Positions 33,628 to 40,565 of a stretch of 64,000 nt of DNA are shown one piece after another. Position numbers and translations under genes: made by a program. This stretch comes from an uncultured Chloroflexia bacterium (GTDB taxonomy: Bacteria; Chloroflexota; Limnocylindria; Limnocylindrales; CSP1-4): contig CAVRHM010000006.1 of assembly GCA_963721015.1 (NCBI GenBank), positions 914,154 to 978,153 on the forward strand, given 5' to 3'. How positions within the stretch are numbered: position 1 is the stretch's first letter; every line of letters begins with the position of its first letter. The notes under the pieces are model-generated. The model ran no database searches, had not been told where the DNA came from, and saw only the letters and a list, made by a program, of their open reading frames with translations.

Positions 33628-34661
33628 GAGACCGGCAGGCGGTCGATGACGACCGGTGCGCCGTCGCGCGCGGAGCGGATGAGGGCGTCGGCCAGGACGA
33701 CGGCCCAGCGGCCGTCCTCCGCGGCGACGATCGGTCGTCGACCGGTGCGGATGACGTCGAGGAAGGACTCCAGCTCGGCCCGCAGCGGCTCACCACCGGA
33801 CACCGGGAGGTCCACGGTCTCGCCGGTGAACGTCGGGGCGTAGCCCGCGATGAGGTCCGGGTCGGTCAGGTCGGTCCCGCGGGTGAAGGTCAGGCGCTGG
33901 GTCAGGTAGTCGAGCTCGAACATGCCCTCCTCGCCGAGCACGGTCAGGGTGCGTCGCTTGGTCGGCGTCAGCCAGTCCACGTCGAGCATGGCCACCGACC
34001 CGGACGGGAAGCGCATGAGGCCGAACAGCAGGTCTTCGTGCTCCTGGTGGACCCGCTGGGCCGTCTCCGCCGTGACGCTGACCGGGCGCTCGGCGGCGAC
34101 CCAGCACAGGATGTCGACATCGTGGGTGGCCAGGTCGATGGTCACCCCCACATCACGGATCCGGGCCGGCAACGGGCCGCCGCGACGACTCGTGCTGGCG
34201 TAGACCGTCGACAGCCAGCCGGCATCCAGCAGCCGGCCCAGCTCGAGCACCGCCGGGTTGAAGCGCTCGACGTGGCCGACCTGGACCGGCACCCCGGTCG
34301 CCTCGGCGGCGTCGACGATGCGGTCGGCCTCGTCGGGCGTCGCGGCCAACGGCTTCTCGACGAGGACCGCGACGCCGCGCTCGATGGCGGCCAGGGCGAG
34401 GCTCAGGTGGGTCATCGTCGGTGAGGCGATGATCACCGCATCCAGGTCCGCCTCGCCAAGCAGGGCGAGCGGCTCGGCGTACGGTTGGGCGGCGGTGTCC
34501 GCCGCCTCGAGGGCGTCGGGCAGCGGATCCGAGATCGCGACCACGTCGACACCGGGCAGGTCGGTCAGGACGCGCAGGTGGTTGCGGCCCATCGCCCCGA
34601 GGCCGATGAGCCCGACCCGCGCGTCGCGCGAGCCGATCGGCTGCCAGCGACCCGCGGTCAT
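33624..34661 (-). CDS. Gfo/Idh/MocA oxidoreductase (WbpB-like sugar 3-dehydrogenase)
   Basis: IGLGAMG, VEKPLA, VGHVERFNPA, DLATHD. Confidence 0.85.
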   Translation of the reverse strand: MTAGRWQPIGSRDARVGLIGLGAMGRNHLRVLTDLPGVDVVAISDPLPDALEAADTAAQPYAEPLALLGEADLDAVIIASPTMTHLSLALAAIERGVAVLVEKPLAATPDEADRIVDAAEATGVPVQVGHVERFNPAVLELGRLLDAGWLSTVYASTSRRGGPLPARIRDVGVTIDLATHDVDILCWVAAERPVSVTAETAQRVHQEHEDLLFGLMRFPSGSVAMLDVDWLTPTKRRTLTVLGEEGMFELDYLTQRLTFTRGTDLTDPDLIAGYAPTFTGETVDLPVSGGEPLRAELESFLDVIRTGRRPIVAAEDGRWAVVLADALIRSARDGAPVVIDRLPVS

Positions 34662-35750
34662 CGCCCGACCACCGCGGTGACGGCGGCCCGCAGCGCCCCG
34701 ACGACGACGTCCTGCTCGTCGTCGCGGAGGCCCGGGAACATCGGCAGGGACAGGGTCGTCGCGGCCACATCGTCCGTCACGGGCAGCGACGCGCTGATGC
34801 CGAGCGCCGTCACGTACGGCTGGCGATGGACCGGGATGGGGTAGTAGATGCCCGTCGCGACGCCCGCGCCGGCGAGCTCGGCGACGATGCGATCCCGGTC
34901 CGGCCCGACCGTGACCGTGTACTGGTGGAAGACGTGGGTCCGGTCCGGCGGGACGAGGGGACGCCCGATGGGCAGGTCGGCCAGGGCTGCGTCATAGCGG
35001 GCGGCCAGCTCCCGGCGCCGCGCGGTGTTGCGCTCCAGCTTGTCGAGCTGGACGAGCCCGATCGCGGCCGCGAGGTCGGTGAGGCGGAAGTTGTAACCCA
35101 GCATGTCGTGGCGGTAGCGCTCGTGCATCCCCTGGTTCCGGTAGAGCCGGAGCCAGTCGGCGAGGTCGTCGTCGTCGGTCGTGATGAGCCCACCCTCGCC
35201 CGTGGTCAGGTTCTTCGTCCCGTACAGGCTGAAGACCCCGTGGCCGAAGCTACCCACGTGCCGCTCGCGATACGTGGCCCCGTGGGCCTGGCAGGCGTCC
35301 TCGATGATGGCCAGGCCGTGGCGCCGGGCGATGTCACCGACCGCGTCCATGTCGACCGGCAGGCCGAACAGGTGGACCGGGGCGATGGCCCGCGTCCGCG
35401 GGGTGACGGCCACCTCGATCCGGTCCGGATCCATGAGGTAGGTCGCCCGATCGATGTCGACGAAGACGGGCTGCGCCCCGGTCGACAGGATCGCGCTGAC
35501 CGTCGCGTTGAAGGTGTGGCCGACCGTGATGACCTCGTCGCCCGGGCCCAGGCCCAGCCCGGCAGCGACGCACATCAGGCCGACGCGTGCCGTTGCTGAC
35601 CGCGATCGCGTGCCGCGTCCCGATGAAGGCCGCCCAGCGCGTCTCCAGCTCGGCGACCCGTGGCCCGGCCGCGAGCATCCCGCTGCGCAGGACCTCGCTG
35701 ACCGCGGCGATCTCCTCGTCCCCGATGTCCGGACGCGCGACCGGGATCAT
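34658..35750 (-). CDS. DegT/DnrJ/StrS aminotransferase (WbpE-like), frameshift near 35585
   Basis: MIPVARP...GPRVAELE..AIAVSNGT, then VHLFG, IEDACQAHGA, FSLYGTKNLTTGEGG, GYNFRL. Confidence 0.88.
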
Positions 35751-36394
35751 GACGCCAGGACGACGCGATCGGCGTCGATGTCGAAGCGCCGTCCACAGGC
35801 GGCGCAATCGAGGACCCGGTCGGTGGCATAGCGTTCGTGGTCGGCCGGGGCCGGGATGCCGTCCGCCGTCCGCAGGCGTTGACCGCACACGCAGACCCAG
35901 CCGATCGTCCGGGCGGGATTGCCGGCCACCAGCGCGTGCGCCGGGACGGGATGGGTCACGACGGCGCCCGCCCCCACGGTCGCGTACGGCCCGATATCGC
36001 AGCCGGCGATGACGATCGCGCCCGCCCCGATCGAGCATCCGTCGTGGAGCGTCGTCGCGGTCAGCGTCCACTCGCCGGCCTGGGCCAACTCGCCGTCGGC
36101 GTTCGTGGCGCGTGGATAGCGGTCGTTGGTGAGGATGGCGCCCGGTCCGATGAACACCCCATCGCCGACCGTCACGCCGTGGTAGACGAGGGCACCGTTC
36201 TGGATCTTGACCCGCGACCCGATGGCGACGTCCGTATCGATGAAGGCGTCGCGCCCGATGATCGAGTCGGCCCCGATCCGCGCCCCCGTCCGGACCTGCG
36301 CCCGATGCCAGATGGCCGTCCCGGCCCCGATATCGACGTCGGGCTCCAGGTCGGCCGTCGGGTGGACGCGCGCGGCGGGGTCGATCGAGGACAT
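35747..36394 (-). CDS. Hexapeptide-repeat N-acetyltransferase (WbpD-like) with C-terminal CxC...CxxC
   Basis: IWH..QVR..A.IG, KIQNGA..Y.GV, FIGP..ILTND.YPR, ALVAGNPAR.IGWVC.CG. Confidence 0.88.
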   Translation of the reverse strand: MSSIDPAARVHPTADLEPDVDIGAGTAIWHRAQVRTGARIGADSIIGRDAFIDTDVAIGSRVKIQNGALVYHGVTVGDGVFIGPGAILTNDRYPRATNADGELAQAGEWTLTATTLHDGCSIGAGAIVIAGCDIGPYATVGAGAVVTHPVPAHALVAGNPARTIGWVCVCGQRLRTADGIPAPADHERYATDRVLDCAACGRRFDIDADRVVLAS

Positions 36395-36482: not shown

Positions 36483-38626
36483 TCACTTGGCGTCCCGGAT
36501 GGCCGGCACGAGGAAGCCGGCCAGGCCGGCGACCACACTGACCAGCCCGAACGTCGCCAGGACGAACTGGACGCCGATGAGCTCGGCCAACACGCCGCCG
36601 ACGGCCATGGCGATGGCCATCGACCCGAAGACGAGCCAGAACCGGAAGCCGACGACCCGGCCCATCAGGGCGGCCGGGGTCCGTTCCTGGAAGAGGGCCT
36701 GGCTGGGGATGACGAACATCATGTTGGCGATCCCCGACCCGAAGGCGATCCCGATGGCCACGCCCAGGTTGCCGGTCAGCGCCAGGGCGGCCACGGCGAC
36801 CCCCCATGCCGCGTAGCCGACGCTGATCATCCGGCCCTTGGCCAGGCGCGCGCCGACGAGGCCGATGACGAAGCCGCCCAGCAGGTTGCCGGCGCTGGTC
36901 GCGCCCTCCAGGAAGCCGTAGGCGGCCACGGCCTGGGACCGCCCGTACACGACGGCCGCGTAGGTCGGCATGAGCGCCGTGATCGCGCCGACGCTGAGCT
37001 GGGCCACGGACGCCTGGATGGTGTTCGCCCACAGCGTCAATTCGCTGCGCAGGAAGGTGTAGCCGGCGCGCAGCTCGGCGACGAAGCCCTGGCCGGCGCC
37101 CGTCTCGACCTCGGCGTCTTCGGCGGCGTCTTCGGCGGTCGCCGCGCGGACGACCATCGTGCTCAGCAGGAGGGCCGACCCGATGTAGGTCGCCGCATCC
37201 AGCCAGAACGCGACGGGCAGGGCGCTGCCCAGGGCCGCGACGAACAGGGCTGCCAGCGGGAAGCCGACGACGTCGGCCAGGGTCTCGCCCACCCACAGGG
37301 CGGAGTTGGCGGTCACGAGCTCGTCCTTGTCGACGAGCTGGGGCAGGATCGCCACCCGGGCCGGCCGGAAGAAGATCGAGATGGAGGTCATGACGAACAC
37401 GAGCGGGTAGACGAACAGCGGGTTGGTCACGAGGGCGATCGGGACGATCAGGACGACCGCCGCGCGCAGGAGGTCGCTGACGATGAGGACCTCACGCCGG
37501 TCCCAGCGGTCGACCAGGGTGCCCGCGATGGGGCTGACGATGAGGTTCGGGACGAACGCGGCCACGAACACGAACGCCGAGGCGATCGGCGAGCCGGTCA
37601 CGATGAGGACGGCGGTCGCCAGGGCGACCTGATGGATGCGGTCGCCGAACAGCGAGATGAGCTGGCCGGCCCACAGCGCCGTGAACGAGCCGTTGAGGGC
37701 CAGGCGGACGTACGGGTGGCGGCGGACCCGCTCCACCGCCTCCGTGGATGGCCGCGGGAGGGCGATGACCGGCGCGCCGGGGGCCGACGACGCGCAGTCG
37801 GCACGCCGGCCGCCTCGAACGCCGCGGCGATCGTCGCATCGTCGAGCCGGCCGGCCGCCGACGGTGCCGGGAGCGGCGCGAGGGCCGGCGACTTGATGAG
37901 CGGTCCCTGCGATCCGAGCATCACCGGCCGCTGCAGGCCGGCGGCAGGGTTCAGGGCCGGGGCGAGGCCGGTCTCGGCCTGGATGCCCGTGCCACCATCC
38001 GGGCGCGGCAGTCGGGTCGAGCTGGCCAGGCCAACGAGCCGGCGCCGGATGGCCTCCTCCTCGTGGGCCTCCAGGACGGTCGGGATGCGGACGACGCTGG
38101 CGAACAGGAAGAACCCGAGGCCCAGGGACAGGAACACATCGCCCAGCGATGCCACGTTGTTGAACGGCGGGACGGGGATGGGGATGACGTCGCCGAAGAT
38201 CAGGCCACGCAGCAGGAAGTCCGCCGCGTCGGCGTCCTCCACGACGACGTGGAGGTTGGAGATGACCTGCGACGGGTCGTAGCCTGCCGCGACCAGCGCC
38301 GGCTCCCAGATCGGCATGTAGCCGCCGTTGAGGAGGATGACGACGGCGTTGAGCAGGATGCCGACGAACGCGAGGCCCAGGCCCGGGTAGCCGCGGTTGA
38401 CCCACAGCCCCACCAGCAGCAGCCCGAAGCTGGCGGCCAGGAGCGGGACGCGGAGCACGTCCGCGATCGGGAGGCCGGCATCGAGCAGCGCCTCCGTCCC
38501 GAACCGGATGATGACGGCCGCGAACAGGAGCGGGACGAGGCGGAGCTGGATGGCGCCGAGGTTCACGAGCCGGCCGCCCGCGAGCAGGCCGAGCACGAGG
38601 CCGAGGATGATGCCGGCGATCAACAC
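36483..38626 (-). CDS. DUF5317-like membrane domain fused to an MFS transporter (one frameshift at ~37810)
   Basis: ORF 37598..38626: GLLAGG, LLNAVVILLNGGYMP, FGDVIP, SLGDVF. ORF 36483..38405: LWAGQLISLFGDRIH, GTLVDRWDRR, LMGRV. No start codon or SD seen at the MFS junction. Confidence 0.72.
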
Positions 38627-38756: not shown

Positions 38757-40203
38757 TCAGGCCTGTTCGGGCGCCGCCGCGGTCGCCGACGCGGTGGCCG
38801 GCAGGGCGGGCACGGCCGGGATCGTCGTGGCCGTCGGGCTCGGGTCGGGCGCTCCGCCGGTCATCCGCGCAGCGGCCTGGCCGATGAGCGGGATGGGCCG
38901 CGGCTGGACGGTCCGGCCGGGGTCGGCCACGCCCTCGACGTGGTGGGTCCGGACGAACGCATCGACGACGACCGGGTCGAACTGGATGCCGGCGAACTTG
39001 CGCAGCTCGGCGAGGGCCTGCTCGGCGGTCAACGGGGTCATCCGGTACGGGCGGGCCGCCGTCATCGCCTCGAAGGCGTCCGCGACGTGGAGGATGCGCG
39101 CGAGCTTCGGGGATCTCGTCGCCGATGAGGCGGTCCGGGTAGCCCGAGCCGTTGTACCACTCGTGGTGGTGGCGGATGATCGGCAGCTCGGGCGCCAACT
39201 TCGTGACCGGGGCGATGATCTCCGCGCCCAGGACCGGGTGCGCGTTCATGATCATCCGCTCCTCGCGGTTGAGGCGCTCCTGCTTGAGCAGGACGTTGTC
39301 CGGTACGCCGATCTTGCCGACGTCGTGGAGCAGACCGCCCCACTCGAGCGCTTCCACCTCGGCGTCGTTGACGTGCATGACTTGCCCGATGTCGACCGCG
39401 ATCTCCTTGACCCGGACGCTGTGCATCGCCGTGAACGGATCGCGCTTGTCCACCGCCTCGGCCAGCGCGCCGATCGTCTGGGTGAACATCTCGCGCATCT
39501 CGACGAAGCGCCGGTATGCCATCCGCGTCGAGTACAGCGGGATGGCAAACAGAGCGGTTGCCCACCACTGCACGACGTAGATCACGGACATCAACCACGC
39601 TAGCGGCGCGAGGGCAAAGACGCCGCCCATGATTCCTCGGATGTCGCCGATGAACACGTCTCGGGGCGATTGGCCGGTTCGCAGCCCGATTGCGGTGGAA
39701 ACGAGCGCCAAGTTGCCCACGATGAAGATCACGGCTGCGGCCATTGCCGACGCGAAGTCAGACGCAACACCCGGAAGGTACTCAAGCCATACGTGGCGGG
39801 TCACACCGGCAACGACCGCGGGTAGAACCAGTGCCGCGTGGTTGGCAAGAGTTCCATACCAGGGGACCTTTCCCCTGATCTCGCGAAGCTCCGTGGTGCC
39901 GATTAGTGCGACCCAGCCCGCGACGGCAGGCCCACCGAGGAACATCGAGCCCATGATCGGAGCGATCGCGACAGCCTGTTGTGTGCCTCGGGGCAACTGA
40001 ACAGGGAACGCCGAACTCACGAGTGTGAGCCCGATCCAATAGGCAACCCCCAGGGATGTCGCCACGCCCGCTGGGAGTGTGCGGGCCCCGTCGAGCTGGA
40101 TCGCGATAGCTGCAGACGGTTCAAAGAGAATTGTCGAGGCCATTAGCGCCAAGGCGCCAATGGCCACGACCGCGATGATGTACAGCTTCAATGAGACCGG
40201 CAT
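38757..40203 (-). CDS. Membrane-bound HD-GYP domain protein (putative c-di-GMP phosphodiesterase), frameshift near 39105
   Basis: About 6-7 N-terminal TM helices; DKRDPFTAMHSVRV, LLHDVGKIG, HHEWYNGSGYP, ILHVADAFEAMTAARPYR, QFDP. Confidence 0.9.
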
Positions 40204-40276: not shown

Positions 40277-40366
40277 CTAGAAGCCTCTAAGCGAAGCCCC
40301 CCCAGCGAGTGCGATCATCGCCACGCTAGAAAGCGTGATTGCGATACGCATAAGTTTGGCCTTCAT
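40277..40366 (-). CDS. 29-aa signal-peptide-like precursor MKAKLMRIAITLSSVAMIALAGGASLRGF
   Basis: Basic n-region, hydrophobic h-region, LAGG then a short tail; first gene under the riboswitch. Confidence 0.7.
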   Translation of the reverse strand: MKAKLMRIAITLSSVAMIALAGGASLRGF

Positions 40367-40450: not shown

Positions 40451-40480
40451 AAAACCGACCAGACTCATGGTCGGTCGGTT
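40451..40480 (-). terminator. Intrinsic terminator (riboswitch expression platform)
   Basis: Minus strand AACCGACCGACC-ATGAGTCT-GGTCGGTTTT; the stem uses the 3' end of the aptamer. Confidence 0.7.
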
Positions 40481-40565
40481 GCACTACTTGCTCCGCCTCA
40501 CCCTAAGTGCCCATTTCAGGTGAGGCATCGGCGCGTCCGAGCGTCTTGACGTTGCTTCCTAGTAC
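40470..40565 (-). ncRNA. c-di-GMP-II riboswitch aptamer
   Basis: Minus strand GGAAGC...GCCTCACC-TGAAATGGGCACTTAG-GGTGAGGC-GGAGCAAGTAGTGCAACCGACC. This matches the class-II landmarks GGAAAC / AAAU-GGGCACUU / GAG-UAGUAGUGCAACCGACC, including GGGCAC-GTGC pseudoknot complementarity. Lies upstream of an HD-GYP gene. Confidence 0.8.

Follow-up and report, generated by a model that had tools for sequence, protein, structure and literature searches.

A DUF5317-MFS fusion gene of Limnocylindria, probably split by a single assembly indel in one metagenome-derived genome

A stretch of 64,000 nucleotides (nt) from the assembly of an uncultured Chloroflexia bacterium (GCA_963721015.1, contig CAVRHM010000006.1, positions 914,154 to 978,153; the genome is labelled G000 here) was analysed. 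All coordinates given below are positions of this whole stretch, which we call the window, and the genes discussed lie on its minus strand. Positions 36483-38626 carry two open reading frames (ORFs), one with a DUF5317 domain and the other with a transporter domain of the major facilitator superfamily (MFS). We consider it likely that the two are parts of a single gene, split by an indel of the assembly, whose product is a membrane protein of about 714 amino acids (aa), and that this protein has the role in a cyclic di-GMP (c-di-GMP) operon that is set out below. The original prediction, made from the letters of the DNA, had proposed that a single indel hides one DUF5317-linker-MFS protein of about 710 aa. 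This was borne out, in that the homologues are consistently encoded by one ORF and the conceptual product obtained on joining the two frames has 714 aa. The features are collected in Table 1.

Composition, translated search and alignment agree on where the two frames meet. In the DUF5317 frame the GC content at third codon positions (GC3) is 0.88-0.94 down to about 37805 and about 0.75 beyond it, and in the MFS frame it climbs to 0.94-1.00 from about 37800. On searching with the intact homologue of locus L054 (protein P0001) by tblastn, residues 22-275 were matched at 38563..37802 and residues 206-724 at 37982..36486 in the other frame; joined at the break, the two frames cover residues 22-724 of this homologue collinearly. 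At the junction the nearest intact homologues read 'AAFDASGVSIPGATSSAPTITLPRPS', which in the window is divided across the frames into 'AAFEAAGVP' in frame 1 and 'SSAPGAPVIALPRPS' in frame 2, and the lesion is therefore placed within about 37791-37801. It had been claimed earlier that the DUF5317 frame decays where a second frame turns sensible (near 37810, or within 37790-37830), and this interval confirms it. The exact base of the lesion cannot be fixed from the alignments, as the linker is variable over these positions. Codon starts on the minus strand pass at the break from coordinate class 1 (mod 3) to class 2 (mod 3), and therefore either one base is missing or two are extra. The last 65 residues or so of the 342-aa ORF ('RRPPARRSSPSRGHPRRRW') are nonsense-like and have no homologue, and GC3 drops in that frame. 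The single lesion aside, the gene is in perfect condition as judged by alignment: 31 fusion homologues share 181 invariant residues, and the window's copy retains all of them.

As to a separate start for the transporter, the original prediction had seen neither a start codon nor a Shine-Dalgarno sequence. This stands only in part. An in-frame GTG with a GGAGG does exist at 37734-37736, but a gap of 2 nt is too short and the GTG therefore lacks the usual ribosome-binding site; also, in the fused homologues the stretch just before it (IALPRPSTEA) is part of the conserved coding sequence. The GTG is probably not used as a start, and a stand-alone MFS protein beginning at GTG 37736 was ruled out on account of these conserved upstream codons.

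The relatives show what the undamaged gene looks like. A profile search of 40 relatives' genomes found the DUF5317 orthologue in open frames of 654-745 aa in many genomes of the same genus, and on translation a single ORF of 654-740 aa with DUF5317, linker and MFS was seen in 10 of them (loci L012, L020, L022-L025 and L027-L030). When the DUF5317 domain plus linker was used as query in a protein search, 713 long database proteins matched, and nearly all of the best 120 of the 713 have PF17248 together with PF05977/PF07690 in about 700-730 aa. In the databases the fusion proteins go by 'MFS transporter' or 'DHA3 family macrolide efflux protein-like MFS transporter', and hundreds of entries with this single-gene fusion architecture are already public under such generic names. 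All diagnostic motifs lie in one ORF in 76 of the best 80 species-level loci of a species-representative genome collection, and these 76 intact loci come from 44 short-read and 32 long-read assemblies. Except for a few loose submitter labels, the best 80 loci are labelled Chloroflexota or Limnocylindria. In a sample of 150 genomes of the phylum, open frames of 636-753 aa are confined to the own family and class, and the remaining classes have stand-alone DUF5317 genes of 186-267 aa. Therefore, from the single-ORF homologues and the phylum sample taken together, the fusion is real and characteristic of the class; going by these sequences, the gene is normally fused throughout class Limnocylindria (Chloroflexota). 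Single proteins with both domains, which the original prediction had suggested looking for in related genomes, were thus found as one uninterrupted ORF of 650-750 aa in many of them, and the outcome it had named as a refutation, homologues that are consistently two separate genes, was not seen within the genus or the class. These Limnocylindria DUF5317-MFS_3 fusions (e.g. P0001, 724 aa, GCA_051306295.1) have the same domain order, length and linker motifs as the window's copy, are up to 70% identical to it over DUF5317 and linker, and lie in the same operon (riboswitch, peptide genes, HD-GYP, then the fusion). They are uninterrupted, whereas the window's copy has a one-base frame break, and in the assembled sequence its two domains are not in one ORF. 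A mention of DUF5317 was not found in the literature searched.

The missing base is very probably an uncorrected indel of a long-read-only metagenome assembly and not a feature of the organism. G000 consists of 8 contigs (3.39 Mb, estimated completeness 77%). On aligning the ORFs of short-read relatives to G000, 28 frame changes were counted in 19.5 k aligned residues, i.e. 0.48 per coding kb, against 0.06 per kb in the reverse control, and therefore about one break is expected in a gene of 2.1 kb. The two nearest genes checked, those for the HD-GYP protein and a DegT-type aminotransferase, are likewise split. Among same-genus assemblies the orthologue is broken in 9 of the 13 with at most 20 contigs and in 0 of the 8 with at least 100 contigs (Fisher p = 0.005), and the breaks in the few-contig assemblies lie at differing positions, often several in one gene. 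These few-contig relatives are long-read metagenome-assembled genomes (MAGs) of Microflora Danica (MFD). The MFD MAGs are Nanopore-only assemblies with one round of Medaka polishing, and the authors looked for Nanopore-associated errors in the lower-coverage MAGs (PMC12313526). It may be noted that loci L055 and L056 encode an identical 728-aa fusion yet differ in their split neighbours (MalT/BTAD regulator, HD-GYP), a difference that fits random indel errors in these assemblies.

The assembled sequence itself shows the break, and it would also arise if the frameshift were real in the population, the gene being then either a very young pseudogene or a source of two products (DUF5317 with a nonsense tail, and an MFS protein from GTG 37736). 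The in-frame GTG with its nearby GGAGG agrees with two products, and split pairs of DUF5317 and MFS genes exist in other lineages, so that a split form could function. But there is one lesion only in 2.1 kb with every invariant residue kept, one break is already to be expected from the assembly background of about 0.5 frame changes per kb, nearby genes are split as well, and breaks among the relatives follow the type of assembly and not the phylogeny. Also, GGAGG is just 2 nt from the GTG, and a start there would lose the conserved IALPRPSTEA. We therefore hold a real frameshift to be improbable. Far less credible still, with a probability close to nil, is a programmed -1 ribosomal frameshift or transcriptional slippage that unites the frames in vivo. 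Two long open frames in a -1 relation fit such an event, but the homologues encode the junction in a single frame without any shift, no slippery heptamer or homopolymer is apparent at 37791-37801, and other assemblies break at different places. This explanation was rejected, given the single frame of the homologues and no shift site conserved among the relatives.

Table 1. Features of the DUF5317-MFS gene and its surroundings (positions in the 64,000-nt window)
Feature	Position	Strand	Basis or remark
Whole DUF5317-linker-MFS gene	36483..38626	-	Conceptual product 714 aa; two frames meeting at ~37800
DUF5317-frame ORF	37598..38626	-	342 aa; GTG start at 38626
MFS-frame ORF	36483..38405	-	MFS_1 / MFS_3 matches from ~residue 239
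Frame-break site	37791..37801	-	GC3 switch; tblastn frame change; alignment to homologues P0001 and P0009
Spurious tail of 342-aa ORF	37598..37798	-	Out-of-frame MFS start; runs to first stop codon
In-frame GTG, sole possible start for a stand-alone MFS	37734..37736	-	GGAGG 2 nt upstream
DUF5317 domain (Pfam PF17248)	38105..38551	-	E 9.5e-24; residues 26-174; genome search match G000:C6:952258-952704
Linker, Ala/Pro/Arg-rich, ~115 residues	37737..38086	-	Conserved short motifs; predicted disordered
MFS domain, 12 helices, MFS_3 / DHA3-like (TIGR00900-like)	36510..37691	-	Pfam MFS_1, MFS_3
Membrane HD-GYP gene, upstream	38757..40203	-	Pfam HD_5 + HD; split at ~39106-39110
29-aa hydrophobic peptide gene (MKAKLMRIAITLSSVAMIALAGGASLRGF)	40277..40366	-	Between riboswitch and HD-GYP gene
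c-di-GMP-II riboswitch aptamer, operon head	40464..40547	-	Rfam RF01786; 65.6 bits vs gathering score 53.5
Promoter-like site	40617-40588	-	Promoter scan
DegT/DnrJ/EryC1-type aminotransferase gene, split	34658-36071, break near 35590	-	'..AIAVSNGT' continues as '..GLMCVAAGLGLGPGDEV..' in other frame

The N-terminal half of the product matches PF17248 over profile positions 2-150 of 151 with 84.6 bits against a cut-off of 25 (87 bits in the whole-genome search), and the family motifs N..N.G.MP, D(V/I)IP.P and NV.S.GD are all present in it. Over 29 diverse homologues N93, N100, G102 and M104 are invariant, and P105, D146 and P149 are at least 90% conserved. An AlphaFold model built from the own sequence with 28 homologues (predicted local distance difference test, pLDDT, 92.5; predicted template modelling score, pTM, 0.84) has five long transmembrane helices, with a small subdomain of four strands lying between helices 4 and 5. 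From this model we infer an orientation with the N-terminus outside and the C-terminus inside, because of the positive-inside rule and because the MFS half must start in the cytoplasm; such an orientation would place the strand subdomain, N93, N100, G102-M104-P105, D146 and NVASLGD at the outer face. G000 also has a second DUF5317 paralogue, which is stand-alone and of 176 aa (locus L016, G000:C6:264179-267598), with no HD-GYP or MFS gene within 1.5 kb; in the ORFs adjoining it no link to c-di-GMP signalling was seen.

The linker that follows carries short motifs which align across the class (ETGLxPAL, ALxRPxxLG, SPALAPLP and IxLPRPSxE) and may be docking or regulatory motifs. In the model of a full-length homologue two folded domains are connected by a linker with pLDDT <50 over residues 202-288. 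The C-terminal half matches MFS_1 (E 2.7e-26, 92.8 bits) and MFS_3 (E 9.9e-23, 80.8 bits), both above cut-offs, and TIGR00900 with 192.5 bits, which is under the curated cut-off of 319.6. Weaker matches are to Mef, Tet(V), Tap, EntS and the transporter part of LplT-Aas fusions. Against MFS folds of the PDB, the homologue model gave a probability of 1.00 with target-normalised TM-scores of about 0.6-0.86, the matches of this full-length model being to generic MFS folds only; against PDB sequences, the MFS half had no match at E <= 0.001. On these scores the MFS half is related to the DHA3 subfamily but is not assignable to it. The DHA3-type MFS drug:H+ antiporters (TIGR00900; Mef(A), Tet(V), Tap) and EntS share with it the C-terminal match and the same 12-helix fold, but the scores are below the curated cut-offs (far below for Mef, Tet and EntS), and therefore no substrate can be transferred from them. 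To our knowledge, no DHA3-type antiporter or EntS carries an N-terminal DUF5317 domain. The LplT-Aas proteins (NCBIfam PRK08633 / PRK06814) combine an MFS lysophospholipid transporter with an acyltransferase in one chain. They offer a precedent for an MFS of the same broad subgroup with a fused module acting on the molecule that it transports. The MFS half matches these at E 1e-9 to 8e-21, with scores far below the model cut-offs; there the MFS part is N-terminal and the partner a soluble enzyme, whereas DUF5317 is a 5-helix membrane domain on the N-terminal side.

The DUF5317-MFS gene is the last of an operon that runs from the promoter-like site through the riboswitch, tiny peptide genes and the HD-GYP gene. 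The same layout is seen in relatives, and the c-di-GMP-II riboswitch is also found in L054 and L056. Conservation of the 29-aa peptide MKAKLMRIAITLSSVAMIALAGGASLRGF was seen in L054, L056, L025 and L029; a search of 20 other Chloroflexota DUF5317 loci for its motif gave no match, which is a weak negative as a strict regular expression was used. A second tiny ORF, ending ..GGTSVAPESAKAW, is also kept in L054 and L056, and in a distant low-GC contig a look-alike peptide (MKKVIYVIASLAAVILAAGANLSWY, L058 632-709 on the plus strand) precedes the genes for a MASE9-HD-GYP protein and a stand-alone DUF5317. The upstream gene of the window takes its MASE9-HD-GYP label from the gene calls of relatives. 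It is split by tblastn, with residues 1-343 and 342-429 of the homologue in different frames, and the shift amounts to one extra or two missing bases, in the direction opposite to that of the DUF5317-MFS break.

The HD-GYP gene lies directly upstream in every fusion locus examined. Also, an HD-GYP gene is present within 3 kb of 12 of 20 stand-alone DUF5317 loci in other Chloroflexota, and one of the 20 has in addition a riboswitch of the c-di-GMP-II clan. In the distant contig L058 the peptide, MASE9-HD-GYP and DUF5317 genes are consecutive and overlapping. Three loci of Chloroflexota family f17 (L153, L156 and L158) have separate genes in the order HD-GYP, MFS_3, DUF5317, and at L141 the DUF5317 gene (188 aa) and the MFS_3 gene (482 aa) share an ATGA stop/start overlap, this split being provisional as the assembly, going by its 'contig_' names, is probably a long-read one. 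That the DUF5317, MFS and HD-GYP proteins work together is suggested by their being fused in one lineage and encoded by neighbouring genes in others. The upstream gene is of the type of the MASE9-HD-GYP phosphodiesterases (T. maritima TM1467 type), for which DUF5317 is a recurrent downstream neighbour. MASE9 has been proposed to bind a ligand within the membrane, and a DUF5317 or MFS partner of MASE9 is not mentioned in that work (Galperin and Chou, bioRxiv 10.1101/2021.11.05.467447). The pairing of MASE9-HD-GYP with DUF5317 is an observation of the present analysis.

The original prediction had gone further and described a 'processing-plus-transport' protein built on an MFS transporter, analogous in function to the peptidase-containing ABC transporters (PCATs). 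The single DUF5317-linker-MFS protein of that description stands; its processing half failed to gain support, as DUF5317 has no family, PDB or fold match to any peptidase. With the model of pLDDT 92.5, Foldseek found no relative among PDB structures (best E = 3, TM-score <= 0.33), and the DUF5317 profile found none among PDB sequences, the only match being a spurious one to cytochrome c' (E 0.025). Pfam and NCBIfam gave nothing beyond the own Pfam entry, peptidase families included, and there is no NCBIfam model for the domain. On comparing a Chloroflexota signal peptidase II (LspA) profile with the DUF5317 profile by hhalign, a probability of 7.7% was obtained over 16 columns of a non-catalytic segment; the matching columns are in a loop that the model would place in the cytoplasm, and the residue opposite the catalytic Asp is not conserved. 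An ordinary LspA gene is present elsewhere in G000. With no profile or fold similarity in these searches, membership in signal peptidase II (Peptidase_A8) or another family of intramembrane proteases gained no support. What DUF5317 shares with PCATs and LspA is the idea of a processing module plus exporter and a superficial GGxxxNL motif; the searches brought up no similarity in sequence, profile or fold, the helix count differs and so, on the model, would the topology. A reading by analogy, in which a precursor such as the 29-aa peptide is processed by the DUF5317 half, acting as a peptidase within the membrane, and the product is then exported by the fused MFS half, would draw on the conserved signal-peptide-like gene in the same operon, on the look-alike peptide ahead of MASE9-HD-GYP and DUF5317 in the distant low-GC contig, on the invariant Asn/Asp residues that the modelled topology puts near the outer membrane face, and on a fusion and exporter neighbourhood that match a logic of processing followed by export. 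In view of the searches above, of the peptide motif not found in the other Chloroflexota loci and of the many DUF5317 genes that have no adjacent transporter, we think it unlikely.

The role that we favour is a less specific one. The fusion protein would be the transport arm of a c-di-GMP-II riboswitch operon with peptide genes and a MASE9-HD-GYP c-di-GMP phosphodiesterase, in which high c-di-GMP would turn the operon on and the HD-GYP enzyme would supply feedback. Its architecture is a five-helix DUF5317 domain, a flexible, probably cytoplasmic linker of about 115 residues and a 12-helix DHA3-like MFS domain. As an exporter, the MFS part probably works by proton antiport on a small and probably hydrophobic substrate. 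DUF5317 would be a partner domain with a conserved polar cluster on the outer face (N93, N100, G102-M104-P105, D146 and the Asp of NVASLGD), which may act on the transported molecule or couple the transporter to the MASE9 sensor, and would cooperate with both the HD-GYP protein and the transporter.

Some findings weigh against this account of one gene, an assembly indel and a role in the operon. The break site is not within a long homopolymer. A second copy of the population was not found on scanning the JGI metagenome contigs for exact matches to two 26-nt anchors flanking the break. The model of the full-length homologue (pTM 0.71, linker pLDDT <50) has no confident docking between the domains. 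Also, some stand-alone DUF5317 paralogues have no HD-GYP or MFS gene alongside, and therefore the domain is not tied to the module in every case.

A bolder extension, which we would call a long shot, takes DUF5317 for a new membrane-embedded enzyme that acts on a peptide or lipid at the outer face. Together with the peptide, MASE9-HD-GYP and, in Limnocylindria, the fused MFS exporter, it might form a self-contained signalling circuit gated by c-di-GMP, in which the fusion makes and exports the signal that MASE9 senses in the membrane.

For annotation, the two ORFs are best recorded as a single gene. G000 is best treated as having about one artificial frameshift per 2 kb, and its 'pseudogenes', split genes and any other fusions hidden by indels need the same check. 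The useful residue of the finding is the association of DUF5317 with a DHA3-like MFS transporter and MASE9-HD-GYP. Public data contain about 2,000 clusters of DUF5317 at 50% identity. By guilt-by-association the finding links this entirely uncharacterised domain with a DHA3-like exporter and with the MASE9-HD-GYP c-di-GMP phosphodiesterases, and this three-way association is a concrete starting point for experiments on DUF5317 and MASE9.

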